A stretch of DNA of 64,000 bases from Azolla caroliniana (Eukaryota; Plantae; Polypodiophyta), in assembly GCA_043228905.1 (NCBI GenBank), contig JBHGNT010000004.1, forward strand, positions 4,898,001-4,962,000. The letters run 5' to 3'. Below the pieces are notes generated by a model, which was not told the origin of the DNA, made no database searches, and saw only the letters and a program-made list of their open reading frames with translations. This document shows, piece after piece, positions 23,562 to 56,748 of the stretch. The translations under genes were made by a program, and so were the position numbers. Positions within the stretch are counted from its first letter, which is position 1; each line of letters starts with the position of its first letter.

Positions 23562-23867
23562 TGTCATGATATGGCAAGACTCGAACCCATGAACTTATGC
23601 TACATGGGTCGAGCTCTTGACCATTAGACCATACATTATAATACGTAAAATATTATTTTCATTTATGTTTTTATTATAGAAAATTGATGTATATTCCAGA
23701 TTTCTTTGGAACATTCTAGAAACTTCAGGAGTACTCCTGAGAACACTATAAAAGGAGGCACAAGGCATTATTTCGAACCTAATCGGTTCAACGCCAATCT
23801 TAAGCCTCCTAGCTACTATTGTATACTCTCTTCACATAATATATATCTTTTATCATCATTCTCTCAC

Positions 23868-23916
<49 letters not shown>

Positions 23917-24000
23917 CACTCTTTCCTTCTCTCGACAGTTCTACACCTCTCTTAGTACTAATCCTCATCTTTTAGTACTATCTTAGTACTGATCCTGACA
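23562..24000 (+). mobile_element. Solo LTR (chromovirus-type gypsy family)
   Basis: TGTCA...TGACA ends; flanks ACTGC/ACTAC (5-bp TSD, 1 mismatch); TATAAAA at ~23747; similar to the LTR at 38084 that precedes a gag. Confidence 0.85.
23575..23633 (-). promoter_or_regulatory. tRNA-like Pol III A/B box pair in LTR
   Basis: A box TGGTCTAATGG (23631-23621), B box GGTTCGAGTC (23587-23578). Confidence 0.55.
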
Positions 24001-25098
24001 ACTACATATAGATCTCTTCGTCAAATTCCCCATGTAGGAATGTTGTCTTGACATCCAATTGCTCTGTCTCTAGATCATGGTTGTTTAAGTACCTGTATTT
24101 AACGTTTAAATAAGTATAGTACCTCATCATTTGTATAGTACGTACTATACCTCAATGTTGTTCAGTCAAATATCATGTACATTTTTCCAATACGTATTTA
24201 ACGTATTTATAAAAAAACAGGTATAATATGTATTTATAAAGAAAATGTAAGTAAAACCCCAACAAAAACCAAAAGAAAAAAAAAGATTTTAGTGAAAAAG
24301 AAGCCAAAGGAAGGTAGAAAGAAGAATAGAAGAGACGACGACGATGAAGAAGAAGAAGAAGAAGAAGAAGAAGAAGAGAGAAAAGAAGACATAAACCTGT
24401 CCTAACTCTAAGTGTGATAATCGTAGAAGATAGAAGAAGAAGAAGAAGAAGAAGAAGAAGAAGAGAGAAAAGAAGACATAAACCTGTCCTAACTCTAAGT
24501 GTGATAATCGTAGAAGCTAGAAGAAGAAGAAGAAGAAGAAGAAGAAGAAGAAGAGAGAAAAGAAGACATAAACCTGTCCTAACTCTAAGTGTGATAATCG
24601 CAGAAGATAGAAGAAGAAGAAGAAGAAAACGAAGAAAAGAGAAACCTATCATGAGTGTGATAATCGTAGACGATTCCTAAGTCTATGAAGGCATAATTGC
24701 AAATAATTACAATTTAAAGTAGAACATCGTGATACACACTTACACTGATTTATAGAATAAGGGAATGTTGACATCCATATTACGTCAAGTATTTTAGGAT
24801 GTGAAATGTTCAAATGTCTTATATGCATTTTAGGATGTAGAACTATATTGTATATCACAAAATTGTGTAGACATAGATGTTTTTTACAATATTATAGATA
24901 TTTTTTAGAAAGGTAAATAATTTTCAAATTCTAGAAGTATTTAACGTACTATATGTAAAATATGCATTTTATGTATTTTACGTATTTTATAAGTATTTAA
25001 CATATTAAGAAAACATATTTAACGTATTTTTAAATTGGGAGGTACTATACGCGTATTAATACATTATATACGTATGGTATCCGTACCGTACCTAACGT

Positions 25099-26140
25099 TG
25101 TCATGAAGATTTTCGGGAATGGTGTGAAAATTACGAAGAACATACAAAATCGAGTGTGGTTCTTCACACACGATATGAAACAATAATAGTAAAGATATTA
25201 TTTTAGATTAGTTTAATATCTTGGTACTTTACTACATTTGAAACAAATAACTAAATGTCAAGTTATGTGAATGTAAAGTTTGAGAAGAAGAAGAGAAAAA
25301 CAAAACTATGAGATATCCCACATAGATAGGACAAATCAGGATCCCCCATTATATAAGCAAAGCCATAACTTATTACTTTCTGTCTATGTGTGGAGCACAG
25401 AATGTTCTTGGGCTAAATTGTGGCTTAACTACTCGTAAAGGTTCCGGAGGACTGGATTGGATGGACGACGACGGAATCGGAACCGAAATCTGGACCGGAT
25501 GGACTAGATAGACGGATTGATAAGATAGATTGATCATGACAATTTCGGTGTGAAATGAACAAAATCATCTAGACTAAAAAACCTAGTAAAAATTTGTATA
25601 CAAAGGATACAAGCAAGGCTTGAACCTTGCAACCCCAAGATAAGAGGCAGTAAACTGACCATTAAGCCAAGTCATTTCTTAAGAAATGTTTTTTCTATCA
25701 TTATACTTTCACATGTAATACTCATATTAGAGCTTGAATAAGTGACATGGTTATCATGCATCACGTGTAATGCATGAGTGCCAAATGGCAAACATGCATC
25801 ACATGCATTCCATGCATTGTATGCATGTCTTGTACCCTGACATGTATCATATGCATGGGGGCATCTATAAAAGAGTGGATGAAAAATATGAAAGGGGGGG
25901 CGATGTATGAATCAAGAATTTATTAAGAAGAAAATTCATTATCCAATTGATGATATATCTTGTTCTTCAAATCTAAAGTCAAGAGTTCAATCTTAATCTC
26001 TCTCTCCATTTCAGTCTTTCTCAATCTGTTTCAAAATTGGAATCTTAATCTTAATCTCTCTTAAATCCTTTCTCGCTAAAGCTAGTGAAAACTTCGAATC
26101 CTTCCTCATGATCTGCACGTAGTGACGGATCTTCACGACA
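25099..26140 (+). mobile_element. Solo LTR, about 1.04 kb, 4-bp TSD family
   Basis: TGTCATGAAGAT...ATCTTCACGACA; TSD ACGT; TATAAAA at ~25866 after an ATGCAT-rich block. Confidence 0.8.
25615..25670 (-). promoter_or_regulatory. tRNA-like Pol III A/B box pair in LTR
   Basis: A box TGGCTTAATGG (25669-25659), B box GGTTCAAGCC (25626-25617). Confidence 0.5.
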
Positions 26141-27174
26141 ACGTACCTAACAACCTTGCTCTAGATTCATACTAGCAACAGTACCTAGCATTGTTAGGAT
26201 GTATGTCATCTTTACGACTGGTGCGAAGATCTCATAAAAAACTTTGCCTTGTGGAAGGAGATGATTCAGGATGTGTTGATCATTCGAAGATAGGTTGAAG
26301 CCATTCGACACAGCGAAAAACCTGCTTCAGTAATAACCGAGGATTGGAGATCAACGGACAAAATCGCATGCTCCACCATCCAAATGCATCTGGCCGAAAA
26401 TGTCTATTTCAACATGGTGAAAGAGACAACAACGTTCTCATTGTGGGAGAAGCTACAAGACATTTATGAAAAGAAGTCCTCATCTTCAAAATAGATTTTG
26501 ATCAAACAAGTGTTCAACATGAAGATGAGAGAGGCCGATCCGGCAACCTCCCACATCAACACCTTCAGCCGGGTGTTGTCTGAGCTCTCGTCACAAGGGA
26601 TCAACTTCGAAGAAGAAGTGAAAGCCCTTGCCCTCCTATAGAGCTTGTCGGCGAGTTGGGAGGTATTCTGCACGACATATGCCAATAGCCGACCGATCCT
26701 AAACTTGGACGAAACAATCAACCAAGGCCTCATAGAGGACATCAGGCGAAAATCGATGGGACTAACCATCGCTGAGTCGGCAGAAGCCGCGAGTAGTGGA
26801 GACTCGGCCGTGCATTCCCAGCGCAGGAAGCCGAGGAGACGGCTTACGCGCAAAGAGAAAGGGAAGAAGAAGGTGTTGGATTCCGGCACAGATAGGAACG
26901 AGTCAAACCGACGCGAGTCCGACTCTGAGGGAACCGGTGACTGGTCTTTAAAGGTGAAGTCCGCGTTGACCGAGAAGGCCTCGACATTGGCTAATGTGAG
27001 ATTACGCCGATCTACCCGCCAGAAGAATCCTGTGTTGCGGTTCGGATACAACGAGTACATGGCGCATCATTATGCGTACATGACCCGTGTAGCGGAAGTG
27101 CGTGAGCCGGAGAGCTACGTAGAAGCGGCTAAAGACGCGACTTGGCGTGCCGCGATGGAGGAAGAGATGCACGC

Positions 27175-28078
27175 TGTCGTGACGTGGCTCGCCTAGAAGC
27201 GTAGCGTTGCGTAGACAAAAGATATCATGAAAGTGAGGAAGGAATCACTGGGATTATGGACGGAAGAGACGAAAGAGTAGAGATAGATAAATAGTGATCA
27301 ACAAGATATGACAAGATAGGATATAGAATGATATTTGAAGCAATAAAAGAGATTTATAATTATTTGATGAAAGAGTTACAAAAGTGGTTGTACACGTCGT
27401 TGAACCTCTGAACTTTGTCTTGCAAGGTAATCACTGTTCTCTTTCTTGATCGTAGACCACTACAATCTTCACTTCAATATTTTGATGAAGATAAGGCTCG
27501 AACCACCTCCCTCTTGTTGAGAGTTGAACACCACGACCGCCAGGCTAGAGCTTATCTTGAACTTCTTCCTTTCTTTCTCTATTTTATGGTATCTCTTATG
27601 TAATATATATTTGATTGATATCTCATACATATCTCCCTTTGATCTTCTCTTTCACCATTTAAATAGGTGCCCCCATGCATATGATGCATTGGAGGGTACA
27701 AGTCATGCATGTAGTGCATGAAATGCATGTGATGCATGATAAACATCTCGCTCATTTGAGCTTTTATGTATGAAACAATATATGCAATAAGAATAAACAT
27801 GAAAATATAATCTTAAAGAGAAAGGGCTTAGCCTAATGGTAGGTATGTTGACTTTGGTGTATGAGGTTGTGGGTTCGAGTCTCAAAATACTATTGAATAC
27901 AACATACAACTTTATTCTTATATCATGAAGCAAATCCTTTATGTAATATAAAGTATATATAAAGTATGCTTTATTTTATGTATATTACTAGTATAGAGTA
28001 AATGGTAAGATTTGAGAGTCATAGGGTGGGGTTATTGGTTCAAGTCCTTTCTTGTTCGTGTAATATAATATACTTATC

Positions 28079-28109
<31 letters not shown>

Positions 28110-28243
28110 TCTTTACATATATATAATATTATCATATGTGTGGTTAATATTATCTTTATATATAAAACATTATCAAATGTTATTTTAGTTACGTATTTAT
28201 CTTATTGTAGACTTTTAATGTGAAGCTTTCGTATTTCACGACA
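27175..28243 (-). mobile_element. Solo LTR, about 1.07 kb, 4-bp TSD family
   Basis: TGTCGTGA...TCACGACA; flanks ACGC/ATGC; removing it plus one TSD copy restores host frame EEEMHALAENETW. Confidence 0.85.
27829..27883 (+). promoter_or_regulatory. tRNA-like Pol III A/B box pair in LTR
   Basis: A box TAGCCTAATGG (27829-27839), B box GGTTCGAGTC (27872-27881). Confidence 0.55.
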
Positions 28244-31047: not shown

Positions 31048-31540
31048 TGTCATGAAGAAATTGCTTCACGATATTAAAATAAACTCAAACATTAGATTCT
31101 AAGTGACATTGAGAACACTTGAACCCACAACCTTGTATACCAAGTATAAAGTATATACCATTACAATAAGTTATTTTCTATAATTATATTTTCATCATCA
31201 TACTTATGGCATGTCTATCTTCATACATTAGAGCTTAGATGAGCCTGATGGCTATCATGCATCACATGTAACGCATGTGCGCCAAATGGCGATCATGCAT
31301 CACATGCATGCCATGCACTCTCATATCATCATATGCATGAGAGAACCTATAAAGAGAGGCAAGGAATCAAGGGATTAATAAGGGAAAAGAAGAAAGGAAT
31401 CAAGAGAAAAACAGAACATAAAAATCAACAAGAAGAAGTTAGCTTATTCGGGAAGTGTCTTGTGTTTAAAAGTGGAAGTCAAGGGTTCAATCTGGAATTT
31501 GGTAGAGAATGGATTTATCTTGCGATCAAGCATTGTAACA

Positions 31541-34500
31541 TGTAGAAATTCCGTGCTCGGCCACAACCGAGGAACAGGATCGATTCGCAGAAAACGGGAA
31601 ATACAAGAATGCACGAAGAACAACAGAGAGAAGAGCACACAGGATGTTTACGTGGAAAACCCTAAATGGGAAAAAACCACGGGAGTCCTCTAACTCCAAC
31701 TATCACTATACACAGAGATGTACAATGGTGAGGCTACAAGGCAACAACCTTGAGCTCGCTGTCCTCGCCACAGGCGGCGGTATTACACAGAGGCGTCGAC
31801 CTCTTCCTTCCTCTTTCTCTCTCTCACTCTCGCTCGGCTGCTCTCACTTCGCTCCCTCTTAGTGGACAACAGAAAAATGAGCAACAACAAAAAACTGTTT
31901 GCCCTAAGTCATATTTATACATATATGACTTTCGGGCTATTTACAAGTATAGCCTCAAGGGCCCTTGGCAAACATATTCACAAATATGTCTCCGCATCCG
32001 GATCTCTCTCCGGGTACATACGTCATCCGGCTCCGTAACCGGGGTCTTCAGCGTCCGGATCCGCAGCCGGGTACTCTTCATCCGGCTTCATGCCGGGTAC
32101 TCTTCATCATATGGTTCCGTAGCAGCCTCCGGGCTTGCCGTCATTCATCTCCGGACATCCCATCCGGAGGGACCGAAATCCCAACAAACTCCCCCTTCAC
32201 TTCGGCATGGGATGTCTCTCCAACCCGATCCTCTTCCGGCATGCTTCCAGCTTGTCGGGTGTGAGCACCTTGGTCAGCATATCCGACCCGTTCTCGTTCG
32301 TGTGGATCTTCGTCAGCACGAACTCCTTGTCTTCTATCCTTTCCCGGATCCAGTGGTATCTACGCTGGATGTGTTTCGTCCGGGAATGGTAGGCCGCGTT
32401 CTTTGCAAGGTGGATGGCACTCTGACTATCGCAGTAGAGTCGGTACTCCTCCTGCCGGATCCCGAGCTCTCTAATGAAGTCCTTCATCCATATTATTTCC
32501 TTGCCGGCTTCAACAGCTGCCATGTACTCCGCCTCCGTGGTTGACAACGCAACCGTCTTCTGCAGCCTCGACTGCCACGAAACGGCTCCCCCAGCATAGG
32601 TCATCACATACCCTGATGTCGACCGGCTGGTATCTGCATCAGCCGACATATCCGAATCGGTGAAGCCGTCGAGTTCGGGCTTACCGAAGCCGAATCGGAC
32701 ACACACATTTGTCGTGCCCTTCAGGTATCGGAGTATCCACTTGACCGCGTTCCAATGCTCTTTGCCGGGATTGCTCATGTACCGGCTCACCACTCCGACT
32801 GCGTATCCAATGTCTGGTCTTGTACACACCATTGCGTACATCAAGCTTCCGACAGCAGAGGCATATGGTACTTTCATCATGTCCTCTTTCTCAGCCTTTG
32901 TCCTGGGGCTTTGCTTGCTGGACAGCTTGCAGTTTGCCGGGAGGGTTGATCCGACCGGTCTTGCTTCCGACATGTTGAACCGTTGAAGCACCTTTGTCAC
33001 GTACTTCTCCTGTGACAGCCACAACTGCTTCTTGCTCCGGTCCCGGATGATGTGCATCCCTAGTACTTGTCTCGCCGGACCCAAGTCCTTCATTGAGAAG
33101 GTTCGGTGAAGAGCCTTCTTCAGCATCCGTATCTTGACCTGGTCCCGTCCGACGATCAACATGTCGTCCACGTACAGGAGGAGTATTAGAAAGTCTCCTC
33201 CTTCGAATTTCTTCACAAACACGCAGTGGTCAGACTGCGTTTTGAGGTACCCTTCGTCGGTCATGAAGGAGTCGAACTTCCGGTACCATTGCCGGGGAGC
33301 CTGCTTCAGTCCGTAAAGGCTCTTCTTCAACCGGCATACCAGGTGCTCCTTCCCTTTCTTCTCGAATCCTTCCGGTTGCTGCATGTAGATCTCTTCTTCG
33401 AGGTCACCGTGAAGGAATGCCGTCTTCACGTCCATCTGTTCTACCTCGAGGTCCATGCTTGCCGCTATGCTCAGCACCGTCCGGATGGAGGTCATCTTCA
33501 CTACCGGGGCAAATATCTCGTCGAAGTCGACGCCCTTCTTCTGCTGAAACCCCTTCACCACGATCCTGGCTTTGTATCTCGGGGGGTTTCCGGCATCTCC
33601 CGGTTTCAGCTTGAACACCCACTTGTTTCGAAGTGCCCGCTTTCCTTTCGGCAACTCCATAAGTTCATATGTGTGGTTCTCATGCAGGGAATCCATCTCG
33701 TCCTGCATGGCACTCAACCACCTGCGGCTCTGGGTGTCGTGCTTTGCTTCTTCAAAGCTCTCCGGCTCCCCCTCGTCGGTTAGCAGCACGTGCTCTGGTT
33801 CCGGAAATCTCCGGGGGGCCCTTCTCTCTCTTAGAGGATATCTCCGTTCCGGAGCTTCGGTAACCGGTTCTTCCGATTCTTCTTCTTCCGAATCTATTTC
33901 GGGATCGGGGCCGGTTCCGGTATCGTTTTCATCTTCTTCGGCCGGTTCTGTTTCTTCACCGTCTTCGGCCGGATCCTCGAGTGCTAACCGGTCCCTTGCC
34001 GGTCGGGACTGCTCCACGTAGAGTTTATCCTCACCGGTCGACTTTGAGCTCTTCATCTTCTTCTCCGACTCCCAGTCGGCGAGTGTCTTGTCCTCCATGA
34101 AGATGATGTCTCGACTCCTGAATATCTTCTTGTCCACCGGGTCCCATACTCGGTAGCCGAACTCGTCGTCGCCGTAACCGAGGAATATGCATGGCCGGGT
34201 CTTTGGATCTAGCTTTCCTCTCCGGTCCTTTGCCACATGCACGTATGCGAGACACCCGAACACCTTCAGATGCCGGTAGGACACTTCCTTACCGGTCCAC
34301 ACTTTCTGCGGCATGTCTCCGTCCAAAGGTACTGAGGGTGATCTGTTTATCACGTATGTCGCCGTCGACATTGCCTCAGCCCAAAACCCCTTGGGTAATT
34401 TCGCATGCGCCAGCATACTCCGGACCCTCTCCATTATGGTCCGGTTCATCCTCTCGGCCAGCCCGTTTAGTTCCGGCGTCTTCGGCACAGTAAACTCGAG

Positions 34501-37003
34501 CCGGATTCCCTTCGAGCGACAGTACTCCTGGAACTGCCCCCGGTATTCCCCTCCGTTATCCGCTCGTATCGCTTTCAGCTTCTTGCCGGATTCCCTTTCC
34601 ACTCTCGCGTGGAGTTCTTTGAAGACGGACAATACTTGGTCCTTTGTCTTCAACGGTGCCGTCCACAGCTTCCGGCTGTGATCATCAATGAATGTTACGA
34701 AGTACTGGGCTCCGCCATGTGACTTCGTTTCTACCTGACACACATCGGTGTGCACCAACTCCAATGGTGCGCTACGTCTCGTCGGTGGCCTTGAGTGGAA
34801 GGAGGTCCGGTTTTGCTTACCGGCCAGGCAGTCGGTGCACTTCTCCAGGTGCACATGCTTCACTGGAATGAGGTTGTCTTCTGCAAGCCTCTTCATCCCC
34901 TTCTCACTCATGTGGCACAGTCTTTTGTGCCACAGCTCACCGGCAGTGTCGGCTGCCACATTCAGCTCTTCCAGACATAGCCGGGAATTCATCAGGTACA
35001 GTGTGTTGACCTTCCGGGCCCGAGCCACTATCAGGCTCCCCTTGCTGAACTTCATGACACCGTTCCGGATGCTACCCATGTAGCCTTCATCATCTAGCCT
35101 CCCGGCCGAGATCAGGTTCAATCGGACCTCCGGAACGTGTCGCACATCCTTCAGCAGCATCTTGCATCCGGTTGATGTCATCAGCCACACGTCTCCTATG
35201 CCGGCTATCCGGCACGTACCTTCATTTCCCATCCGGACACAGCCGTGCTCACCGGCTGTGTAGGATGAGAAGTATTTCTTCTCCGGGGTCAGGTGGAACG
35301 ACGCTCCGGAATCGACCACCCAGGTCATCTCTACACCGGCAAGGTTCAGCTCCCTCTCTTCGGTAATAAGCATTATCTCTTCTTCACTTGCCGCGAGTGC
35401 CGTCGTTCCTTTCCGGTCCTGCCCTCGCCGATCCGGACCTCTCCGGTCCGTGGCTCCCCGGTATGCACCGTTTCTCTCCGGTGATTTCTTCGAATCGGTG
35501 TCGTCGGCTCCGTTGTCCTTTCGGTAATGCCGACAATTCTTCCGGAAGTGCCCCGGCTTCCCACAGTGGAAGCATGTTGGCCTTCCTCTTGACTGCGACC
35601 GGGTCCCCGACTTCTCCCGTCTTTGCGGACTCCGGTTCCACTGTCTTCCCCGTTCCGATTCGGTAAGCAGCGCCTTCGAGTCGGAGACCGGTTCTTTATC
35701 TCTCCGACGCGCTTCTTCGTTCAAAATACTTGTCTTTACCGTTTGTAGAGACAAGTTATCTTCGGTGCAGGAGGTGCTGAGAGTCACCACCAAGTTCTCC
35801 CAGCTGTCCGGCAATGTACACATCAGGATGATGGCTTGCATTGCATCCTCCAACGGGAACTTGATCGCCGCAAGCTGGTTCACGAATCCCATGAACGTGC
35901 TTACGTGTTCCACCATACTCTCGCCGTCCCGGTACTTGAGGTTCACTATCTTCCTCATCAGGGAGGTCCGGTTCAACGCATTCTTCCTCTCATAGAGGCC
36001 CGACAGCTTCCGCCACATCTCATATGCGTTGGTGTCGTTCGCCACATGCTGTAGAACGCTTACATCGACATATTGTCGGATCGTCGCTACGGCTTTCCGG
36101 TTCAGGAGCTTCCACTCCGACTCAAGTACCCCCTTCGGTATTTCCGACCTGTCAATCGGTTCGTACAGGTCCCGAACAATCAGAAGATCCTCCATCTTGA
36201 TCTTCCAGTCGGCGTAATTCTGCGCATTCAGCACCATCATGCCCGGAGGCCCACTACCGGCGCCTTCCATTTTCTGTGTTACCGTCGCTCTGATACCAGT
36301 TTGTAGAAATTCCGTGCTCGGCCACAACCGAGGAACAGGATCGATTCGCAGAAAACGGGAAATACAAGAATGCACGAAGAACAACAGAGAGAAGAGCACA
36401 CAGGATGTTTACGTGGAAAACCCTAAATGGGAAAAAACCACGGGAGTCCTCTAACTCCAACTATCACTATACACAGAGATGTACAATGGTGAGGCTACAA
36501 GGCAACAACCTTGAGCTCGCTGTCCTCGCCACAGGCGGCGGTATTACACAGAGGCGTCGACCTCTTCCTTCCTCTTTCTCTCTCTCACTCTCGCTCGGCT
36601 GCTCTCACTTCGCTCCCTCTTAGTGGACAACAGAAAAATGAGCAACAACAAAAAACTGTTTGCCCTAAGTCATATTTATACATATATGACTTTCGGGCTA
36701 TTTACAAGTATAGCCTCAAGGGCCCTTGGCAAACATATTCACAAATATGTCTCCGCATCCGGATCTCTCTCCGGGTACATACGTCATCCGGCTCCGTAAC
36801 CGGGGTCTTCAGCATCCGGCTCCGTAACCGGGGTCTTCAGCATCCGGCTCCGTAACCGGGGTCTTCAGCGTCCGGATCCGCAGCCGGGTACTCTTCATCC
36901 GGCTTCATGCCGGGTACTCTTCATCATATGGTTCCGTAGCAGCCTCCGGGCTTGCCGTCATTCATCTCCGGACATCCCATCCGGAGGGACCGAAATCCCA
37001 ACA
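31541..37003 (-). mobile_element. Ty1/copia element B, intact
   Basis: LTRs 31541-32186 and 36302-37003; TSD TAACA; PBS-Met 36287-36298; PPT next to 32187; single open ORF. Confidence 0.97.
32197..36270 (-). CDS. Copia gag-pol polyprotein (about 1357 aa)
   Basis: CFHCGKPGHFRKNC knuckle, WVVDSGAS protease, HKRLCH/CTDC and DDE integrase, YVDD RT, RNase H; ATG just after the PBS. Confidence 0.96.
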   Translation of the reverse strand: MEGAGSGPPGMMVLNAQNYADWKIKMEDLLIVRDLYEPIDRSEIPKGVLESEWKLLNRKAVATIRQYVDVSVLQHVANDTNAYEMWRKLSGLYERKNALNRTSLMRKIVNLKYRDGESMVEHVSTFMGFVNQLAAIKFPLEDAMQAIILMCTLPDSWENLVVTLSTSCTEDNLSLQTVKTSILNEEARRRDKEPVSDSKALLTESERGRQWNRSPQRREKSGTRSQSRGRPTCFHCGKPGHFRKNCRHYRKDNGADDTDSKKSPERNGAYRGATDRRGPDRRGQDRKGTTALAASEEEIMLITEERELNLAGVEMTWVVDSGASFHLTPEKKYFSSYTAGEHGCVRMGNEGTCRIAGIGDVWLMTSTGCKMLLKDVRHVPEVRLNLISAGRLDDEGYMGSIRNGVMKFSKGSLIVARARKVNTLYLMNSRLCLEELNVAADTAGELWHKRLCHMSEKGMKRLAEDNLIPVKHVHLEKCTDCLAGKQNRTSFHSRPPTRRSAPLELVHTDVCQVETKSHGGAQYFVTFIDDHSRKLWTAPLKTKDQVLSVFKELHARVERESGKKLKAIRADNGGEYRGQFQEYCRSKGIRLEFTVPKTPELNGLAERMNRTIMERVRSMLAHAKLPKGFWAEAMSTATYVINRSPSVPLDGDMPQKVWTGKEVSYRHLKVFGCLAYVHVAKDRRGKLDPKTRPCIFLGYGDDEFGYRVWDPVDKKIFRSRDIIFMEDKTLADWESEKKMKSSKSTGEDKLYVEQSRPARDRLALEDPAEDGEETEPAEEDENDTGTGPDPEIDSEEEESEEPVTEAPERRYPLRERRAPRRFPEPEHVLLTDEGEPESFEEAKHDTQSRRWLSAMQDEMDSLHENHTYELMELPKGKRALRNKWVFKLKPGDAGNPPRYKARIVVKGFQQKKGVDFDEIFAPVVKMTSIRTVLSIAASMDLEVEQMDVKTAFLHGDLEEEIYMQQPEGFEKKGKEHLVCRLKKSLYGLKQAPRQWYRKFDSFMTDEGYLKTQSDHCVFVKKFEGGDFLILLLYVDDMLIVGRDQVKIRMLKKALHRTFSMKDLGPARQVLGMHIIRDRSKKQLWLSQEKYVTKVLQRFNMSEARPVGSTLPANCKLSSKQSPRTKAEKEDMMKVPYASAVGSLMYAMVCTRPDIGYAVGVVSRYMSNPGKEHWNAVKWILRYLKGTTNVCVRFGFGKPELDGFTDSDMSADADTSRSTSGYVMTYAGGAVSWQSRLQKTVALSTTEAEYMAAVEAGKEIIWMKDFIRELGIRQEEYRLYCDSQSAIHLAKNAAYHSRTKHIQRRYHWIRERIEDKEFVLTKIHTNENGSDMLTKVLTPDKLEACRKRIGLERHPMPK

Positions 37004-43700: not shown

Positions 43701-46308
43701 ACAAGACACTCGCCGACTGGGAGTCGGAGAAGAAGATGAAGAGCTCAAAGTCGACCGGTGAGGATCAACTCTACGAGGAGCAGTCCCGACCGGCAAGGGA
43801 CCGGTTAGCACTCGAGGATCCGGCCGAAGACGGTGAAGAAACAGAACCGGCCGAAGAAGATGAAAATGATACCGGAACCGGCCCCGATCCCGAAATGGAT
43901 TCCGATGAAGAAGAAGAATCGGAAGAACCGGTTACCGAAGCTCCCGAACGGAGATATCCTCTAAGAGAGAGAAGGGCCCCCCGGAGATTTCCGGAACCAG
44001 AGCACGTGCTGCTAACAGACGAGGGGGAGCCGGAAAGTTTTGAAGAAGCAAAACATGACACCCAGAGCCGCAGGTGGTTGAGTGCCATGCAGGACGAGAT
44101 GGATTCCCTGCATGAGAATCACACATATGAACTTGTGGAGTTGCCGAAAGGAAAGCGGGCACTTCGAAACAAGTGGGTGTTCAAGCTGAAACCGGGAGAT
44201 GCCGGAAACCCCCCGAGATACAAAGCCAGGATCGTGGTGAAGGGGTTTCAGCAAAAGAAGGGCGTCGACTTCGACGAGATATTTGCCCCGGTAGTAAAGA
44301 TGACCTCCATCCGGACGGTGCTGAGCATAGCGGCAAGCATGGACCTCGAGGTAGAACAGATGGACGTGAAGACGGCATTCCTTCACGGCGACCTCGATGA
44401 AGAGATCTACATGCAGCAACCGGAAGGATTCGAGAAGAAAGGGAAGGAGCACCTGGTATGCCGGTTGAAGAAGACCCTTTACGGACTGAAGCAGGCTCCC
44501 CGGCAATGGTACCGGAAGTTCGACTCCTTCATGACCGACGAAGGGTACCACAAAACGCAGTCTGACCACTGCGTGTTTGTGAAGAAGTTCGAAGGAGGAG
44601 ACTCTCTAATACTCCTCTTGTACGTGGACGACATGTTGATCGTCGGACGGGACCAGGTCAAGATACGGATGCTGAAGAAGGCTCTTCACCGAACCTTCTC
44701 AATGAAGGACTTGGGTCCGGCGAGACAAATACTAGGGATGCACATCATCCGGGACCGGAGCAAGAAGCAGTTGTGGCTGTCACAGGAGAAGTACGTGACA
44801 AAGGTGCTTCAACGGTTCAACATGTCGGAAGCAAGACCGGTCGGATCAACCCTCCCGGCAAACTGCAAGCTGTCCAGCAAGCAAAGCCCCAGGACAAAGG
44901 CTGAGAAAGAGGACATGATGAAAGTACCATATGCCTCTGCTGTCGGAAGCTTGATGTACGCAATGGTGTGTACAAGACCAGACATTGGATACGCAGTCGG
45001 AGTGGTGAGCCGGTACATGAGCAATCCCGGCAAAGAGCATTGGAACGCGGTCAAGTGGATACTCCGATACCTGAAGGGCACGGCAAACGTGTGCCTCCGA
45101 TTCGGCTCCGGTAAGCCTGAACTCGACGGCTTCACCGATTCGGATATGTCGGCTGATGCAGATACCAGCCGGTCCACATCAGGGTATGTGATGACCTATG
45201 CAGGGGGAGCCGTTTCGTGGCAGTCGAGGCTGCAGAAGACGGTTGCGTTGTCAACCACGGAGGCGGAGTACATGGCAGCTGTTGAAGCCGGCAAGGAAAT
45301 AATATGGATGAAGGACTTCATTAGAGAGCTCGGTATCCAGCAGGAGGAGTACCGACTCTACTGCGACAGTCAGAGTGCCATCCACCTTGCGAAGAACGCG
45401 GCTTATCACTCCCGGACGAAGCACATCCAGCGAAGATATCACTGGATCCGGGAAAGGATAGAAGACAAGGAGTTCGAGCTGACGAAGGTCCACACGGACG
45501 AGAACGGGTCAGATATGCTGACCAAGGTGCTCACACCCGACAAGCTGGAAGCATGCCGGAAGAGGATCGGACTGGAGAGACATCCCATGCCAAAGTGAAG
45601 GGGGAGTTTGTTGGGATTTCGGTCCCTCCGGATGGGATGTCCGGAGATGAATGACGGCAAGCCCGGTTGCGGTTACGGAACCGGATGATGAAGACCCCGG
45701 TTACGGAGCCGGATGATGAAGACCCCGGTTACGGAACCGGATGATGAAGACCCCGGTTACGGAACCGGATGATGAAGACCCCGGTTACGGAACCGGATGA
45801 TGAAGACCCCGGCTACGGAGCCGGATGATGAAGACCCCGGTTACGGAACCGGATGATGAATGTACCCGGAGAGAGATCCGGATGCGGAGACATATTTGTG
45901 AATATGTTTGCCAAGAGCCCTTGAGGCTATATTTGTAAATAGCCCGAAAGTCATATGTGTATAAATATGACTTAGGGCAAACAGTTTTATGTTGTTGCTC
46001 ATTTTTCATGAGAAGTGAGAGCAGCCGAGAGAGAGAGTGAGAGACGAAGAGGTCGTTGCCTCTGTGTATTACCGCCGCCTGTGGCGAAGACAGTGAGCTC
46101 AAGGTTGTTGCCTTGTAGCTTCACCAGTGTACATCCCTGTTCATAGTGATAGTTGGAGTTTGAGGACTCCCGTGGTTTTTCCCATTTAGGGTTTTCCACG
46201 TAAAACATCCAGTGTACCTTTCTCTCTATTGTTTTGTGCATTTTCTATTTCCTGTTTTCTGTGAGTTGATCCCATTCCTCGGTTGTGGCCGAGCACTGTT
46301 TTTCAACA
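40735..46308 (+). mobile_element. Ty1/copia element D, intact
   Basis: LTRs 40735-41490 and 45609-46308; TSD GTTTT; PBS TGGTATCAGAGC 41494-41505; PPT AGGGGGAG; 28-bp tandem array in U3. Confidence 0.97.
41522..45598 (+). CDS. Copia gag-pol polyprotein (about 1358 aa), near-identical to that of element B
   Basis: Single ORF with knuckle, DSGA protease, integrase, YVDD RT and RNase H. Confidence 0.96.
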   Translation: MEGGGSGPPGMMVLNAQNYADWKIKMEDLLIVRDLYEPINRSEIPKGVLETEWRLLNRKAVATIRQYVDVSVLQHVANDTNAYEMWRKLSGLYERKNALNRTSLMRKIVNLKYRDGESMVEHVSTFMGFVNQLAAIKFPLEDAMQAIILMCTLPESWENLVVTLSTSCTEDNLSLQTVKTSILNEEARRRDKEPVSDSKALLTESDRGRQWHRSPQRREKSGTRSQSRGRPTCFHCGKPGHFRKNCRHYRKDNGADDTDSKKSPERNGAYRGATDRRGSDRRGQDRKGTTALAASEEEIMLITEEGELNVAGDETTWVVDSGASFHLTPERRYFSSYTAGEHGCVRMGNEGTCRIAGIGDVWLTTPTGCKMLLKDVRHVPEVRLNLISAGRLDDEGYTGSIRNGVMKFSKGSLIVARARKVNTLYLMNSRLCPEELNVAADTAGELWHKRLCHMSEKGMKRLAEDNLIPVKHVHLEKCTDCLAGKQNRTSFHSRPPTRRSAPLELVHTDVCQVETKSHGGAQYFVTFIDDHSRKLWTAPLKTKDQVLSVFKELHARVERESGKKLKAIRADNGGEYRGQFQEYCRSKGIRLEFTVPKTPELNGLAERMNRTIMERVRSMLAHAKLPKGFWAEAMSTATYVINRSPSVPLDGDTPQRVWTGREVSYRHLKVFGCLAYVHVAKDRRGKLDPKTRPCIFLGYGDDEFGYRVWDPVDKKIFRSRDIIFMKDKTLADWESEKKMKSSKSTGEDQLYEEQSRPARDRLALEDPAEDGEETEPAEEDENDTGTGPDPEMDSDEEEESEEPVTEAPERRYPLRERRAPRRFPEPEHVLLTDEGEPESFEEAKHDTQSRRWLSAMQDEMDSLHENHTYELVELPKGKRALRNKWVFKLKPGDAGNPPRYKARIVVKGFQQKKGVDFDEIFAPVVKMTSIRTVLSIAASMDLEVEQMDVKTAFLHGDLDEEIYMQQPEGFEKKGKEHLVCRLKKTLYGLKQAPRQWYRKFDSFMTDEGYHKTQSDHCVFVKKFEGGDSLILLLYVDDMLIVGRDQVKIRMLKKALHRTFSMKDLGPARQILGMHIIRDRSKKQLWLSQEKYVTKVLQRFNMSEARPVGSTLPANCKLSSKQSPRTKAEKEDMMKVPYASAVGSLMYAMVCTRPDIGYAVGVVSRYMSNPGKEHWNAVKWILRYLKGTANVCLRFGSGKPELDGFTDSDMSADADTSRSTSGYVMTYAGGAVSWQSRLQKTVALSTTEAEYMAAVEAGKEIIWMKDFIRELGIQQEEYRLYCDSQSAIHLAKNAAYHSRTKHIQRRYHWIRERIEDKEFELTKVHTDENGSDMLTKVLTPDKLEACRKRIGLERHPMPK

Positions 46309-46435
46309 GTTTTTGTCTCATTGTTGTCCTTATTATGCGTGATTTAATCATATGATGAAAAAAGACAGTTGTGATTGATCTATTGTTATTTTCTATTGTT
46401 GTGTGTGTGAGGTGAAGAAGAGAGATAGGACTCAA

Positions 46436-49400
46436 ATGACAAGGAAGACACCCACGAAGACGAAAATGGTCAAAGAAAATGTCAACACAACATGCAAGGA
46501 AAGAAAAAGGACCCCCATCAAAGAAAGTAAGATGACCCCCACCAGAGGGAGGTTTAAATTGTCAACATCTCATGGCAAGAATATGTTCACAAACATCCTT
46601 CGAGGTAGAAAGTTAGGATGGGGATATTTCCTTCGTGCACGACTTGACACTTATGAAGACGTAGACATGTGGATGATCAAAACATGGGGCTCATCACAAC
46701 CGGAGACAAGGAGAGGTTTTCACCTCAATCAATTGAAGAAGGATTATATCACTGAACTAAAGTCACGTTATGAACAAGTGATACAAAACATATCCTAAAT
46801 AATGAGGTAGGAACTGTTTTTGCACGTGCATTTGCATGTGAACTCCATGGTGGCATTGAAGTTGATTGGGAAGATTTTGCTCATCATCGATCATCACATT
46901 ATAGAGGGTCCTCAAGTACCAACACTACTATGAAGTCTGAGGGTACCTCTCACATTGAAATCCTAGCTAGGACATCTGTGTTGACTAAACAGATTGCAAA
47001 AGAAAGAGCTACACTGACAGAAAAGCATGAATAGCGATTGTTGCGTTGCATAGCTTCCATGCAAACAAGAATGCAAGTGTTGCTCACCGATTTGGAAGAA
47101 GTTTCATCTAGTGAGATGGCGGTAGAGAAACAATTCACATATATATCGAATACATACGAATGGATAACAACAACAATCCAACATTCTGAAAGCGATGTGT
47201 TGAAAGAGGAGTTGAAGAAGGAGTTGACAAATATGGGCACTCAATTGGGAAAACAGAAGAAAGATCTGGAGACATGGAGGTCATCTCGTTCTGAAATTGA
47301 TGATAAGTTATCAGCGTTAAAAATTCACTCTGAGAACCTGACATGTTTGATGAAGGGTCTAAAAGATAAAGGTTTAGATCCTCTATGGCTAGAAGTAGTT
47401 GAGCATCCCACTTGCAATGAAAGTACCATTATAAGAATTACTGTATCAAGGTAATGGTTTATATTTTTACAAGTTGACCTTCTATTGTATAAAATATCAT
47501 CGTTGCTAATATAGTGTATGTTGTTTCTTGTATTTGAAGGTGTGTATTATGTGGCCTTGGATTCAAGTTTGAGGTCATGGATGCTATCATTACACCATGC
47601 TTGCACACATATCATTGTTTATGTGCTAAGTACCATTTTGAGAAAGAAAATATATGTTTACTTTGTAAAAGTACAGTTGGCACCGAATGGTACTTAACTT
47701 GGGGTTTGAAAGTACATTCCTATGGTATGTGATTAAGAACATATGTAATTTTTATACTATGATTTTATAATTTTAACATTTGGTCCTGGTCTTATACCCA
47801 TGAGTACTGTTCCTTGATGATCATTTTTACATGATTCAGTACTAACATTACTGATTACATTGTATTCCTTGGTGATTAGTTGACAATGTGAATCTTATTT
47901 AGTACTAAGGATCTTAAATGTTTAGTTGTATAACTTGCATGTGCACTAACATTATTCATTACATTGTACTTTCTGTGTCCACTTGGCTTAGGCTCTGGAT
48001 GACCGAACAAATAGACATGAAAGTCTAGGTTTTTTAGTACTAACATTGTTCATTACATGAAATATGCATGTTCAAGTGGTTGTGTAATGTGCCCTCAAGT
48101 TCCTTGTTGGAAGATTCAGTACTAACATTACTGATTACATTGTATTCCTTGGTGATCAGTTGATTCAGTATTGATTATTTAGTACTGAATGTCTTAATTG
48201 ATTCGTTGTATAACTTGTATAAGTACTAACATTGTCCATTACATTGTACGTTTTCTATCCAGGTGGTTTAGTACTGTTATCTCAAATTCCTTGATTGATG
48301 TTTTAGTACTAACTTACTGATTACATTGTATCCTTTGGTGCTAAGTTGATTCAGTACTGATTATTTAGTAGGGTTTATTTGTATCACTTGTATGACCGAA
48401 CAAATAGGCTCTGGATGACCGAACAAATAGGCATGCAAGTCTTTTCTTTAGTACCGAACAAATTGACAGGAACACACGCTCCCGATGAACAACGCTTGGC
48501 CACAACCGAGCTTAGAATCAAAACACAGAAAAACGGGGAATGGATGCACGACACAAAAGGAGAGAAGAGTACAACAGTGAGCTCACGGAGGCAACGACCT
48601 CGGCACCGACCTCTTCCTCTCTCTCTCTCTCTCTGTACACTGTTACGTGCTCTCTATTCTTGCACCAACAAGAATGACAACTACTACGTCCATCAAAGAG
48701 TTTGCCCTAAGTCCTATTTATACTAATATGAATTTTCAGCTATTTACAAATATGGCCCCGATGGACTCTCAGGAAACATATTTATGAATATGTCCCTTCA
48801 TCCGGTAAGCACTTCTCACCGGGCCTTCACCATCCGGCTCTTGCTGGGTACTCCTCATCCGATTCTCACTGGGTCTTCGGTAGCCGGATACTCTTCATCC
48901 GGTTCTCACCGGGTCTTCCGTAGCCAGTTCTCACCGGGTCTTCCATTGCCGAGTACTCGACATCAGCACTCTTCTTCTCACTTCCCATCCGGAGGGACCT
49001 GTTTCATAACAAACTCCCCCTTCACTCCGGCATGGGATGTCTTACTAGTCCGACCCGCTTCCGACATGCATCCAGCTTGTCAAGTGTCAGTACTTTGGTG
49101 AGCATATCTGACCCGTTCTCGGCCGTGTGGATCTTCGTCAGCGCGAACTCTTGTTCATCTACTCTTTCCCGGATCCAGTGATACCTTCGCTGGATATGCT
49201 TCGTCCGTGAATGGTAGGCCGCATTCTTGGCAAGGTGGATGGAACTTTGATTGTCGCAATAGAGCCGGTATTCATCTTACCGGATACCGAGCTCTCCGAT
49301 GAAGACCTTCATCCATAGTATTTCCTTGCCGGCTTCCACAGCCGCCATGTACTCCACTTTTGTGGTTGACAGCGCAACCGTCTTCTGCAGCCTCAATTGC

Positions 49401-52400
49401 CATGAAACAGCTCCCCTTGCATATGTCATTATATACCCGGATGTAGACCGACTGGTATCCACATCAACCAACATGTCCGAATCGGTAAAACCGTCAAGTT
49501 GAGGTTTTCCAGAGCCAAATCGGAGACACATATTTGAAGTGCCCTTCAAGTACCGGAGTATCCATTTAACCGCATTCCAGTGCTCCTTGCTGGGATTGCT
49601 CATAAACCGGCTCACCACTACGATTGTGTATCCTATATCCAGTCGGGTACACACCATTGCGTAAATTAAGCTCCCGACGGCAGAGGCATATGGAACCTTC
49701 ATCATATCTGCCTTCTCTGCTTTCGTCTTCGGGCTTTGCTTACAGGATAACCTGCAATTTGCCGGAAGTGTCGATGCGACTGGTTTCGCATCGGACATAT
49801 TGAACCGCTGAAGCACCTTTGTCACGTATTTCTCCTGTGACAGCTACAATTGCTTCGTTGGCCGGTTCCGGATGATATGCATCCCCAACATCTGTCTTGC
49901 CAGACCCAAGTCTTTCATCGTGAAGGTTCGGTTGAGAGCCTTCTTCAGCATCCGTATTTTGCTTTGGTCCCGTCCGACGATCAACATGTCGTCCACGTAC
50001 AGAAGGAGTATTAGGAAGTCGCCTCCTTCGAACTTCTTCACAAACACGCAGTGATCGGCATGCGTCTTGTGGTATCCTTGATCGCTCATGAAGGAGTATA
50101 ACTTCCGGTACCATTGTCGGGGAGCCTGCTTCAGTCCATACAGGCTCTTCTTCAACCGACATACCAGGTGCTCCTTCCTTTTCCCCATGAATCCTTCTGG
50201 TTGCTGCATGTAGATCTCCTCTTCGAGGTCGCTGTGAAGGAATGTCGTCTTCACGTCCAGTTGTTCTACCTCGAGGTCCATGCTTGCCGCTATACTCAGC
50301 ACCGTCCAGATGGAGGTCATCTTTACTACCGGGGCAAATATCTCGTCGAAGTCCACGCCCTTCTTCTGTTGGAACCCCTTCACCACGATCCTAGCTTTGT
50401 ATCTCGGGGGGTTGCCGACATCTCCCGGTTTCAACTTGTACACCCACTTATTTCGGAGTGCTTGCTTTCCTTTCGGCAACTCCATCAATTTGTACGTATG
50501 GTTCTCATGCAGGGAATCCATCTCATCCTGCATGGCACTTAACCATTTGCGGTTGTAGGTGTCATCCTTCGCCTCTACGAAGCTTTCTGGCTCCCCCTCA
50601 TCGGTTAGCAGCACATGCTCTGCATTCGGAAATCTCCGGGGAGGCCTTCTCTCTCTGAGAGGATATCTCTGTCTTTGGGCTTCGGTAACTGGGCCTTCCA
50701 TTCGCTCTTCATCCGAATCCGATTCGGGGTCTTGGCCGGTTCCGGTTTCAGCTTCCTCTACTTCTTCTTTTGCCGGTTCGGTATCATCACCGTAACCGAC
50801 TGGTTCCTAGACTCCTAACCGGTCTCTTGCCGGTTGGGTCTGCTCATCATAGAATTGATCCTTACCGGTCGACTCACAATTCATTATCTTCTTCTCCAAC
50901 TCCCAGTCGGCGAGCGTCTTGTTCTCCATGAAGATAATATGTCGACTCTGGAATACCTTCTTGTCAACCAGGTTCCACACTCGGTAGCTGAACTCATCGT
51001 CGCCGTAATCGAGGAATATGCATGGTCGGGTCTTTGGATCCAACTTTCCTCTTCGGTCCTTAGCTACATGCACGTACGCAAGACACCCGAATACCTTCAG
51101 ATGCCGGTAGGACACTTCCCGATGAACAACGCTCCCGATGAACAACGCTCGGCCACAACCGAGCTTAGAATCAAAACACAGAAAAACGGGGAATGGATGC
51201 ACGACACAAAAGGAGAGAAGAGTACAACAGTGAGCTCACGGAGGCAACGACCTCGGCACCGACCTCTTCCTCTCTCTCTCTCTCTCTCTGTACAATGTTA
51301 CACGCTCTCTAGTCTTGCACCAACAAGAATGACAACTACTACATCCATCAAAGAGTTTGCCCTAAGTCATATTTATACTAATATGACTTTTCAGCTATTT
51401 ACAGATATAGCCCTGATGGACTCTCAGGAAACATATTTATGAATATGTCCCTTCATCCGGTGAGCACTTCTCACCGGGCCTTCACCATCCGGCTCTTGCT
51501 GGGTACTCCTCATCCGGTTCTCACTGGGTCTTCGGTAGCCGGGTACTCTTCATCCGGTTCTCACCGGGTCTTCCGTAGCTGGGTACTCTTCATCCGGTTC
51601 TCACCGGGTCTTCCGTAGCCGGGTACTCTTCATCCGGCGCTTGCCGGGTACACCACATCCGGTTCTCCCCGGGTCTTCCGTTGTCGGGTACTCGACATCC
51701 AGTTTCGGCCTCGGCCGAGATTCTCATCAGCACTGTTCTTCTCACTTCCCATCCGGAGGGACCTGTTTCCTAACACAAATATCGATAACATGTCTAGATG
51801 GTTCTGTATTGTGTCCTCAAGTTCCTCTTTATTGTTTTAGTACTAATATTATTGTTACATGCATATTCCTTGGTGATTAGCTGGAACAAAACTGATTTTT
51901 TAGTACTGAAGGTCTTAAATATCCACTTGATTCAGTACTGATAATATTTGTAACATTGTAGTCATGTTAGAACTAATGTACGATTATAATATGAATGTTG
52001 TAGTATCAAGCAACACCACACCAAGGAAGGTTACTAACCAACCAACCCCCGCGCTACTACGTACAGAGTCTGCTGCAAATTCCAAAGTCCATGGTCATTC
52101 CTTAGTGGTAACTGAGGAAATTTATGATGAAGATGAATGTATGAGAAAGGCAATTGGAACAACTGAAGACGTGTTGCTTCAAACAAATTCTCCTACCTCT
52201 GCTCCCCTTGACTGTGTGTACGGTAATGCTAATTGTGTGTGAACTTTTAACAATGCATTGTTGCTATACTTCTAATTTTTTATGTTTCTATCAAAGAGCC
52301 TACGAAGAAGTGTAATGCTGCAAGGAAATTGTATGGCAAGGGGAAGAAATGTAGAGTTCATTGTAGTGGTGGGTCATACAAATTCTCACAAACTTTGAGA

Positions 52401-55034: not shown

Positions 55035-55325
55035 CTAATTTCTTGTTATTTCAGCACCTAATTAATCAGAATAAGTGGTTAATACGTCATAAAATAAACA
55101 TAGTTAATACCCCATAGCATAAATATCAACCGGAAATCGGATAAACATTTGAGAGTTTGCCACAGTCATATATTCCTTTTCCAAAACAATTAACTTTTAA
55201 GAAATAATTGCATCAATTAACTTGTTGTTTGAAATACATAAGTTTTATGACTCACAAGATGAGATGCATGTATACTATTGACATCATGGAGTCTTCTTAA
55301 CTAGAGTTTAAGACTAAGATAAGTA

Positions 55326-55403
55326 TTATGCATGAGTTCATAACATAACTCATGTTATGCATGAGTTCATAACATAACTCATGTTATGCATGAGTTCATA
55401 ACA
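55326..55403. repeat. 29-bp tandem repeat, about 2.6 copies
   Basis: TTATGCATGAGTTCATAACATAACTCATG at 55326, 55355 and 55384 (partial). Confidence 0.85.
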
Positions 55404-56659
55404 CAAACACTATTCATTTGCTTTTTCCATAAAAAACGCCCTCATCAATGAAATTCAAATCCGTTGATTCTTCAAACCGTTTATCAAGTTTTATTAACAT
55501 ATTGGTATTCATGTTAAACGTTTCAACCCATATAAAACCTTAACATGGATCAATTTTAGACTCCCTTGAAGATTTCCAGAACATACAAAAACAATTTATG
55601 TTTAGCGTTTTCCATGATGAATAACTTATGTCAACTCAAACTGTATATTTTGTTGCTCTTGGCTGGTCATTTTACAAGCCTAGCCTGGATGTTGCTAATC
55701 CATTATATCATTAAAACATCCACAATGACTAGTAAAATGACCAGAAGCACTTGGTTGAAACCATTGGTCAGAACATTACAGACTCCAAATATGCAGGTTC
55801 TAACCACTCGGCTGGTGTAAATATTTCAGATTCATGTTATCATGTAATGTTTACATTATTTTAAGATTCCTATTCAACATTAATTTTCATATGTGCCAAT
55901 TTAAGATTGCTAGAGTATACATTCAATTAACAGTATTGTATAGAAATAACCACTTTATAGAAATAGGTGCAAACATACCGAGTGAAAGAGAAGATGGAGA
56001 AGACATACCGATGGAAGGAGAAGTTGGGGAAGACGAGTGACGCAGAGAACAACAAATCGGGTTTCGAGTGCGTTGTGAAGACCTGAGTTGGAAGGCGGAA
56101 GACCAGAGAGCGCTGTGAAGACCTGAGTTGGAAGGCGGAAGACCAAAGTGCGCTGTGAACACCTGCATTATCTCAGTTGGAAGGCAGAAGAGGAGAAGCG
56201 CCAAAAGGATTTAATGTGGCGTCCTAAATTAAACGTGAGGAGGAAATAGCCCCCAAAACAGTCCTGAATACGCAGTAAGTATCCCCCCACCCATTCCCCG
56301 ACTTTAATGCAATGTACACCACTCCCTAAAAAGATTTTAACTATTTTCGATTTTTTAAAAATCACTCAGTATTAACAGTACAAACAGTACTCGTGTTTTT
56401 TTGGCCAAAAACAATACTTTTTTGGTACACCGTAGCGTACTTCAACCCAGATCCCTATTTATAAGTAATAGAGAACACTCTAGAACATTCTAGGTTTTCC
56501 TAAAATGTAGAGTAATCTAGAAGGTTTCTAGAGTATTCTAGAAGGTTCTAGTGTATAGAACACTCTAGAATATTCTAGGTTATTCTAGAATGTAGAGTAA
56601 TATAGAATATCCCTACGATATTAGATTATATATTCTAAAAACTATACATATAAGAATAT

Positions 56660-56714
56660 TAATACAATGGTTAAGGATTTGACATGTGTACAACAAGGTC
56701 GTGGGTTCAAATCC
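56660..56714 (+). promoter_or_regulatory. Degenerate tRNA-like A/B box pair in LTR
   Basis: TAATACAATGG (56660-56670), GGTTCAAATCC (56704-56714). Confidence 0.45.
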
Positions 56715-56748
56715 TTTCGAGGCATGTGATGTGAGTGTCATTATGACA

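Follow-up and report, generated by a model that had tools for sequence, protein, structure and literature searches.

Outward-facing tRNA-type A/B-box modules in the U3 of gypsy long terminal repeats of Azolla caroliniana, a candidate TFIIIC site and chromatin boundary

Introduction

Plant retrotransposons can carry an internal RNA polymerase III (Pol III) promoter within the long terminal repeat (LTR). The closest described case is Helenus/TRIMp3, a group of non-coding TRIMs (miniature retrotransposons with terminal repeats) of 311–1263 bp, in which tRNA-derived LTR sequence has conserved the A and B boxes and lost the tRNA function; the module is thought to be the promoter of the element itself and lies in the sense direction in the examples seen (PMC10886601). 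One Helenus family is known from Selaginella, and Kojima (2024) remarks that ‘not a few LTRs’ hold tRNA-like parts, analyses TRIMs only and argues that the autonomous partners of Helenus must use RNA polymerase II (Pol II) promoters (PMC10886601). The subject of the present analysis is a set of tRNA-type A/B-box modules in six gypsy LTRs, named A to F, of Azolla caroliniana. These lie in a 64-kb stretch of contig JBHGNT010000004.1 (assembly GCA_043228905.1, positions 4,898,001–4,962,000), which is called the window throughout and from whose first base all coordinates are counted.

Unlike Helenus, the elements of the window code for proteins: gag is found in D and E, and integrase in F and in its relatives L001–L007 described below, while the solo LTRs A–C are not judgeable alone. 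The window LTRs also keep a TATA box and an enhancer array, seven U3 modules are antisense to their LTR, and two sense modules follow the TATA box at its downstream side, in LTRs 737–1069 bp long. Cassandra and Ajax share the internal Pol III promoter within a plant LTR, but theirs is a 5S (type 1) promoter driving a non-autonomous RNA, whereas the modules considered here are of the tRNA type (type 2), face outward and belong to coding elements (PMC10886601). An earlier note on this DNA, in which the modules were first listed, had offered Cassandra as the precedent; Helenus is the nearer one, being tRNA-type and already described.

A tRNA-like sequence also occurs in the U3 of HIV-1. The tRNA genes and extra TFIIIC (ETC) sites of yeast resemble the present modules in placing a B-box consensus with its critical C beside a Pol II promoter, and they exert boundary, roadblock and nucleosome-phasing effects; they are host loci with measured activity, whereas the modules of the window are a mobile promoter part of presumed activity (PMC4228148, PMC11346459). 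Foamy viruses hold an A/B-box Pol III unit in the LTR of an autonomous retroelement, with conserved hairpin products and terminators, while most modules here have neither (PMC3993851). In Ty3, with its bipartite primer-binding site (PBS), the U3 holds sequence that is complementary to the T arm and the D arm of a tRNA; the matches to the one primer tRNA are long, whereas the Tcn1-type elements described here self-prime and keep short loop words at gene-like spacing (PMC5371799, PMC11381356). In the open-access literature, no plant LTR of a coding element was found to be described with an antisense A/B module, and Repbase or the Helenus supplement may hold cases; since Kojima notes many Repbase LTRs with tRNA-like parts, unpublished examples may exist. 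The tRNA-derived LTR module is already known from Helenus, and what appears to be new is the antisense module in the U3 of coding LTR elements.

tRNA-type modules in six LTRs of the window

The window was scanned with a generic textbook consensus of the A and B boxes, not fitted to the sites, at a spacing of 42–46 nt and with at most one mismatch per box, and 25 local dinucleotide shuffles served as the control. Nine modules were found in the 64 kb, whereas the shuffles gave 0.28 on average and never more than one; a perfect A box at a spacing of 38–52 nt gave four matches against none. Motif pairs thus far exceed the shuffled control, by which the earlier note had proposed to judge them. All nine fall within the same six LTRs, and the spacing is 43–44 nt in every one. 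The six pairs that the earlier note had listed are all present at the positions, strands and spacing given below, but its list was incomplete, as three more modules occur at 27994/28037 (+), 27547/27504 (−) and 31440/31484 (+) (starts of A box/B box). Its description of all modules as antisense stands for U3, where seven of the nine lie, and not for the other two, which are in the sense direction downstream of the TATA box in the Phygy-like LTRs C and D.

The LTRs share one layout, in which the 5′ end is followed by the antisense module, an AT-rich stretch, an enhancer-like array and the TATA box. Each of the six A boxes listed earlier lies 115–197 nt upstream of a TATA-like word, and the module faces away from it, as had been claimed. 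The arrays consist of heat-shock-element-like dyads in A, E and F and of CATGCA repeats in B, C and D. The six LTRs belong to at least two dissimilar families, again in agreement with the earlier description: three are Tcn1-type and three Phygy-like, and the boundaries and target-site duplications (TSDs) are confirmed for A, B and C. By the ranges given for the two types (PMC6317226), their joint presence points to a non-seed plant as the probable host.

LTRs A, E and F are classed as Tcn1-type by three traits, namely the chromodomain, self-priming and a 5-bp TSD (the last in A alone). The chromodomain at the integrase C-terminus is a frameshifted remnant in F, and PF00385 is found on most of the homologues listed. 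A PBS complementary to the element's own R region is present in E and in the relatives L002, L004, L005 and L007, and spans 9–12 nt in all four relatives examined. Such self-priming in place of a tRNA PBS is described for 83% of Tcn1 chromoviruses (PMC6317226). The features of this group are as follows (ORF, open reading frame).

23562–24000 (+): LTR A, a solo Tcn1-type LTR of 439 bp with the 5-bp TSD ACTGC/ACTAC
23578–23631 (−): module A, with A box 23631–23621, B box 23587–23578 and variable-loop block at about 23595–23591
23709–23791 (+): heat-shock-element-like dyads, TATA box (23747) and putative self-primer word (about 23781–23791, assigned from the relatives) of LTR A
38084–38490 (+): LTR E, a rearranged Tcn1-type 5′ LTR, followed by a Ty3-type gag (ORF 38453–38911)
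38106–38158 (−): module E, antisense, with A box from 38158 and B box from 38115, 31 nt from the LTR start
56441–56748 (−): LTR F, a chromovirus 3′ LTR, broken just past the TATA box by another repeat
56660–56713 (+): module F, antisense to LTR F, with A box from 56660 and B box from 56704, 45 nt from the LTR start
56741–57886 (−): integrase-SH3 ORF beside LTR F, with frameshifted chromodomain
56749–56762: polypurine tract beside LTR F

LTR A was inserted into an old copia reverse transcriptase (RT) fragment, and its module lies 26 nt from the 5′ end and folds into a long hairpin. The region 23568–23630 is a near-perfect inverted repeat with arms of about 20 bp (z about −6), and E and F show matching arm changes. 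In LTR E, the R/U5 part (38305–38490) is inverted exactly between the self-primer and the complementary PBS, and a deletion precedes gag; the inversion is possibly an error product of self-priming, or of recombination between the self-primer/PBS inverted repeats. LTR F contains an array of heat-shock-element-like dyads.

LTRs B, C and D are classed as Phygy-like by 4-bp TSDs of the NCGN type (ACGT/ACGT in B, ACGC/ATGC in C, left flank ACGT in D), only gag surviving in D. The PBS of D is of the TGG type, which may correspond to tRNA-Trp. A 4-bp NCGN TSD and, in 81% of cases, a tRNA-Trp PBS are traits of Phygy (PMC6317226).

25099–26140 (+): LTR B, a solo Phygy-like LTR of 1042 bp with the 4-bp TSD ACGT/ACGT
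25617–25669 (−): module B, antisense, with A box from 25669 and B box from 25626
25976–25992 (+): degenerate remnant of a sense B-box-like word in LTR B, below the scan thresholds; its counterpart by homology is the sense module of D
27175–28243 (−): LTR C, a solo Phygy-like LTR of 1069 bp with the TSD ACGC/ATGC
27829–27881 (+): module C1, antisense to LTR C, with A box from 27829 and B box from 27872
27994–28046 (+): module C0, the second antisense module of C, with A box from 27994 and B box from 28037, 22.9 bits
27495–27547 (−): sense module of LTR C, with A box from 27547 and B box from 27504, 119 nt downstream of the TATA box, 14.0 bits
31048–31541 (+): 5′ part of LTR D, the 5′ LTR of a coding Phygy-like element, with left flank ACGT
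31116–31168 (−): module D1, antisense, with A box from 31168 and B box from 31125, the B box 78 nt from the LTR start
31440–31493 (+): sense module of LTR D, with A box from 31440 and B box from 31484, 92 nt downstream of the TATA box, 13.8 bits
31542–37003: copia element splitting LTR D, with the TSD TAACA
37009–38076 (+): 3′ part of LTR D (to 37251), TGG-type PBS (37257–37272) and broken gag (37292–38076)

LTR C sits in a copia RT, and other copia copies show the empty site; module C0 lies in a duplicated 5′ part of the U3. The broken gag behind LTR D is 83% and 65% identical to P0122. Since the sense modules of C and D lie downstream of the TATA box, the promoters of these two Phygy-like LTRs are bracketed by modules.

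Conservation of the boxes and loss of the tRNA fold

The two boxes are conserved out of proportion to the rest of the module. Among seven Tcn1 families, the ungapped pairwise identity amounts to 0.71–0.72 in the A-box core, 0.77 in the B box and 0.89 at tRNA positions 44–48, and it is 0.24–0.44 in the remaining module segments; the four Phygy-like antisense modules show the same pattern. Positions 44–48 are the variable loop of a tRNA. The earlier note had proposed to test whether the boxes are better conserved than their flanks, which they are, and had described the sequence between them as poorly conserved, which holds for the spacer and fails for this five-base block. The word marks tRNA ancestry and lay outside the criteria of the first scan; the derivation of the modules from a tRNA is supported.

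Of the traits of a type 2 Pol III promoter, the A box, the B box, the tRNA-like spacing and an AT-rich upstream stretch are present. All 12 antisense modules retain GTTCRA (a result of scan selection for the window copies, not for the five relatives), and 10 of 12 retain GWTCRANNC, the consensus with the critical C (PMC4228148). The AT content 11–50 nt upstream of the A box is 0.78–0.88, against 0.60–0.69 for whole LTRs, as expected of a TFIIIB site (PMC13578239).

The tRNA fold is another matter. No tRNA gene was called by ARAGORN in the window or in 50 loci, and no Rfam tRNA family matched at E ≤ 10. None of 14 modules is recognised as a cloverleaf at the default or the 90% threshold, and 6 of 14 are at 80%. 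Covariation of the acceptor, anticodon and T stems is not supported (P 0.58, 0.77 and 0.72), and cloverleaf stems and a hairpin conserved across the modules were both dismissed as unsupported. A run of four or more T inside the LTR follows two of eight Tcn1 modules and all four Phygy-like antisense modules (in module B, a T5 run 34 nt past the B-box start), and the CAA start motif is found in one of 12; both the oligo-T terminator and the CAA motif are weaker outside flowering plants (PMC13578239). With non-covarying stems and a T4 run in only two of the eight Tcn1 modules, there is no sign of an RNA product common to the modules. The fold is lost and a shared terminator is missing, while the boxes, their spacing and the AT-rich flank persist, which is the pattern expected from selection on factor binding. 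That the boxes are under selection at all is judged very probable.

The module in relatives of the Tcn1-type elements

The integrase of F was used as a query (an alignment of 25) and led to 79 metagenome loci, from the best 80 of 597 matches, and nine viral loci. A matrix trained on the six window modules only was applied to the first 500 nt after the called LTR start, which covered 42 of 87 loci; in the other 45, the sequence was too short or no start was called, and some of the start calls were wrong. An antisense module scored 18.0–38.6 bits in L001–L004 and L007, values reached by none of 200 shuffles, and 24.9 bits in L006, which the start caller had overlooked. The nearest Tcn1 relatives, whose integrases are 50–64% identical to that of the window, hence carry the module at the same U3 position and strand in six of seven loci, or five of six families, because L003 and L004 are near-identical. 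Their B box lies 32–59 nt from the LTR start. No comparable module turned up in the 36 called LTRs of greater distance, whose best scores were 11.4 bits in antisense and 13.9 in sense, nor in seven other LTRs of the window, where the best were 0.6 and 7.3. The distant loci are probably fungal. When the loci were scanned over their whole 481 kb, eight matches reached 18 bits, and seven of these lie in the nearest relatives.

The eighth match is coding sequence with a poor B box. A match in the RT of L002 was rejected as conserved coding sequence. The weak antisense scores of L082 and L086 (7.0 and 11.4 bits), the L052/L068/L070 family and the L011 family were not accepted as modules either, because the B word decays in the sister L080, the scores overlap the background, or the LTR start is mis-called. 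Just past the Tcn1 TATA box, a sense word resembling a B box was discarded, since it represents the self-primer and varies with the PBS. Eight further loci from genome contigs had no LTR module. The chromovirus integrase contigs L094–L101 stand within prokaryotic genome records and are most likely eukaryotic contamination. In L004, an antisense A/B-like module is found in frame in the protease–RT linker of both element copies (1020–1062 and 6344–6386, −), scoring 18.0 bits in one copy and below 11 in the other; the linkers of L001 and L002 are without it.

Quick integrase trees group F with L001–L004 and L007 at 99%, and L005 with L006 at 99%. The distribution fits a single gain of the module in Tcn1 and its loss in L005. 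The earlier idea that the module was kept or acquired repeatedly can be divided accordingly: the Tcn1 side fits one old acquisition that was kept, and the Phygy-like side would be a second gain or a U3 exchange. A search for Phygy-like relatives retrieved none. An identical 11-nt word of the U3 enhancer region occurs in B (25780), D (31281), L001 (3560) and L002 (4191, 4237), and extends to 18 nt in D, L001 and L002. Such sharing between the Tcn1 and Phygy-like lineages may reflect U3 exchange; convergent factor sites would account for it too. An 18-nt U3 word had five matches in viral contigs, these being of 54–55% GC, and the single one examined was unrelated. Arrays of heat-shock-element-like dyads occur at 23709–23725, 38235–38250 and 56469–56607 and in the LTRs of L003/L004 and L006, while the sister Tcn1 LTRs of L001, L002, L005 and L007 hold mainly arrays of the CATGCA type, as the Phygy-like LTRs do. 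The enhancer blocks thus appear to be interchangeable among LTRs.

A part of the LTR family, not a separate insertion

Contigs of four public runs from three organisms were mapped to LTR A, the depths being no copy numbers. LTR A represents a high-copy family in all four runs, and the module bin is covered more deeply than other bins of the LTR. At fine scale the depth peaks over the B box in the three DNA-like runs, to which other repeats sharing the B-box word may contribute. In these runs, 46, 34 and 29 contigs extend from a purine-rich stretch into the LTR start. Joints that skip module A were not found in any of the four runs, and none of the nine modules is flanked by a TSD-like repeat of more than eight AT-rich bases. 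The alternative that the modules are separate insertions of short interspersed nuclear elements (SINEs) with their own TSD and tail is contradicted by these findings. Variants at 20% or more within the family occur at 15 places over 146 bp, none of them in the B box or the AATGG core, where only about one or two would be expected, so that within-family variation is weak evidence alone. A single run, guessed to be RNA, gave three low-depth contigs over module A and says nothing on expression or strand. Two lineages of gypsy LTRs carry the modules as a conserved component.

A proposed TFIIIC-bound boundary and its rivals

The following mechanism is proposed. A tRNA or the head of a tRNA-derived SINE would have been captured in an ancestral U3, which is the likely source of the module and the kind of origin proposed for Helenus and Cassandra (PMC10886601). 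TFIIIC likely binds the A and B boxes, and it would load TFIIIB in the AT-rich region that separates the LTR enhancer from the module, as TFIIIC does on AT-rich DNA upstream of its boxes (PMC13578239). The complex would form a chromatin boundary at the outer edge of U3, within which the LTR enhancer and promoter stay open, and in two of the Phygy-like LTRs the bracket would be completed at the far side by the sense module past the TATA box. In yeast, Pol III complexes set the phasing of nucleosomes, stop read-through and act as barriers and insulators (PMC4228148). A motive for such a boundary is suggested by the chromodomain gypsy RLG1 of moss, which resides in heterochromatic islands and yet is transcribed (PMC7466625). 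A boundary or promoter-opening role of the module as TFIIIC/TFIIIB-bound DNA is put forward here with middling confidence.

Several points weigh against this role. In yeast, the B box alone suffices for a boundary (PMC4228148), so that the kept A box, AT-rich stretch, 43–44 nt spacing and uniform orientation are no less well explained by real Pol III initiation. In yeast, Pol II promoters close to tRNA genes can also be repressed by them (PMC4228148), DNA methylation hinders the binding of TFIIIC (PMC11346459), and in the 3′ LTR the complex would lie where the element's own transcript has to pass. The module is lacking from the short LTR of L005 and is therefore dispensable; the join of L005/L006 to the other carriers has only 80% support, and L096, of unresolved position beside the carrier clade, lacks the module. 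The Phygy-like side consists of three LTRs of one window. Two hints of an RNA role are the nominal covariation of the D stem (P 0.02, one of four tests) and the long hairpin, which is confined to modules A, E and F.

A rival view takes the module to be a divergent Pol III promoter that matters for its product. This non-coding RNA, outward or antisense, would tune silencing or replication of the element, either as a hairpin precursor of small RNAs in the A/E/F subgroup or as a transcript that reads out of the 3′ LTR over the polypurine tract. All the promoter parts that this requires are kept (both boxes, spacing and AT-rich upstream stretch), all four Phygy-like antisense modules have a T run inside the LTR, the hairpin across the B box reaches z values of −5.8, −2.9 and −3.2 in A, E and F, and foamy-virus LTRs do produce microRNAs from A/B-box Pol III units (PMC3993851). 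The would-be RNA itself is not conserved in sequence, however; the hairpin is non-significant in 9 of 12 modules (permutation P over the 12 modules 0.083), module A folds equally well on either strand, a terminator inside the LTR is missing in six of eight Tcn1 modules, and CAA is rare, as given above. This explanation is judged rather unlikely. The antisense orientation and the position adjoining the polypurine tract would also be predicted if the sense U3, in the genomic RNA, annealed to a cellular tRNA along its D and T arms. In Ty3 the U3 forms such pairing with the T and D arms of the primer tRNA (PMC5371799, PMC11381356), and LTR D does have a tRNA-type PBS. Yet Tcn1-type elements self-prime (in 4 of 4 relatives examined) and so have no primer tRNA, the U3 word does not track the self-primer, and the stem-side positions vary, only loop positions being kept in blocks of 4–6 nt, too little to anneal one tRNA. 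Such annealing is improbable.

Bound TFIIIB/TFIIIC could instead serve as a landing pad that draws the integrases of elements targeting tRNA genes, as Pol III complexes target Ty integration (PMC4228148), the LTRs thereby seeding their own insertion sites. Only two of the six window LTRs are interrupted by another element, D at 57 nt beyond its sense B box and F at about 220 nt upstream of its A box, and neither distance is tRNA-gene-like; by eye, no nested insertion is seen in the U3 of L001–L007, and an insertion within the element's own promoter would be costly. A landing pad is accordingly less probable still. The least probable reading is that of a neutral passenger: a SINE or tRNA copy would have become fixed in U3 long ago and be conserved in appearance only. 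An insertion of this kind is the likely origin, as said, L005 manages without the module, and several A boxes are degenerate; against this, boxes of 0.71–0.89 identity stand beside near-random spacers across such diverged integrases, and both flanking repeats and skipping joints are missing.

A boundary role would give a testable answer to how heterochromatic retrotransposons keep a usable promoter, and would extend the capture of Pol III promoters from tiny non-coding TRIMs to coding elements, where the module cannot be the element's own promoter. As the LTR families are very abundant, the genome could hold many TFIIIC sites or boundaries that are mobile, with effects on chromatin domains and on the supply of Pol III factors. 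A wider claim is more tentative and on balance somewhat doubtful, namely that Tcn1 and Phygy elements living in the heterochromatin of non-seed plants carry a portable TFIIIC boundary in every LTR, one-sided in Tcn1 and two-sided in Phygy-like elements, and exchange it as a U3 cassette. If that were true, a Pol III-type boundary would be dropped into the genome by every insertion and every solo LTR.

Other repeats of the window

The window as a whole is nested transposon DNA, with copia elements, gypsy fragments and tandem repeats. A hairpin at 55650–55753 has a weak MIR827-family score (30.1 bits against a gathering threshold of 65, E 0.14) and is probably due to chance. A terminus-like word at 3869, 39551 and 56438 marks the ends of a putative DNA transposon, copies of which break LTR F and, near 39513, an LTR fragment. 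Tandem arrays occupy 7495–8522, 12541–13424 and 15200–15838, with unit lengths of 52, 146 and 213 bp. Two copia elements, at 32197–36408 and 41447–45598, lie in opposite orientations, are about 93% alike and encode intact polyproteins of 1383–1403 amino acids; decayed copies related to both are found at 17540–23090 and 48464–51776.

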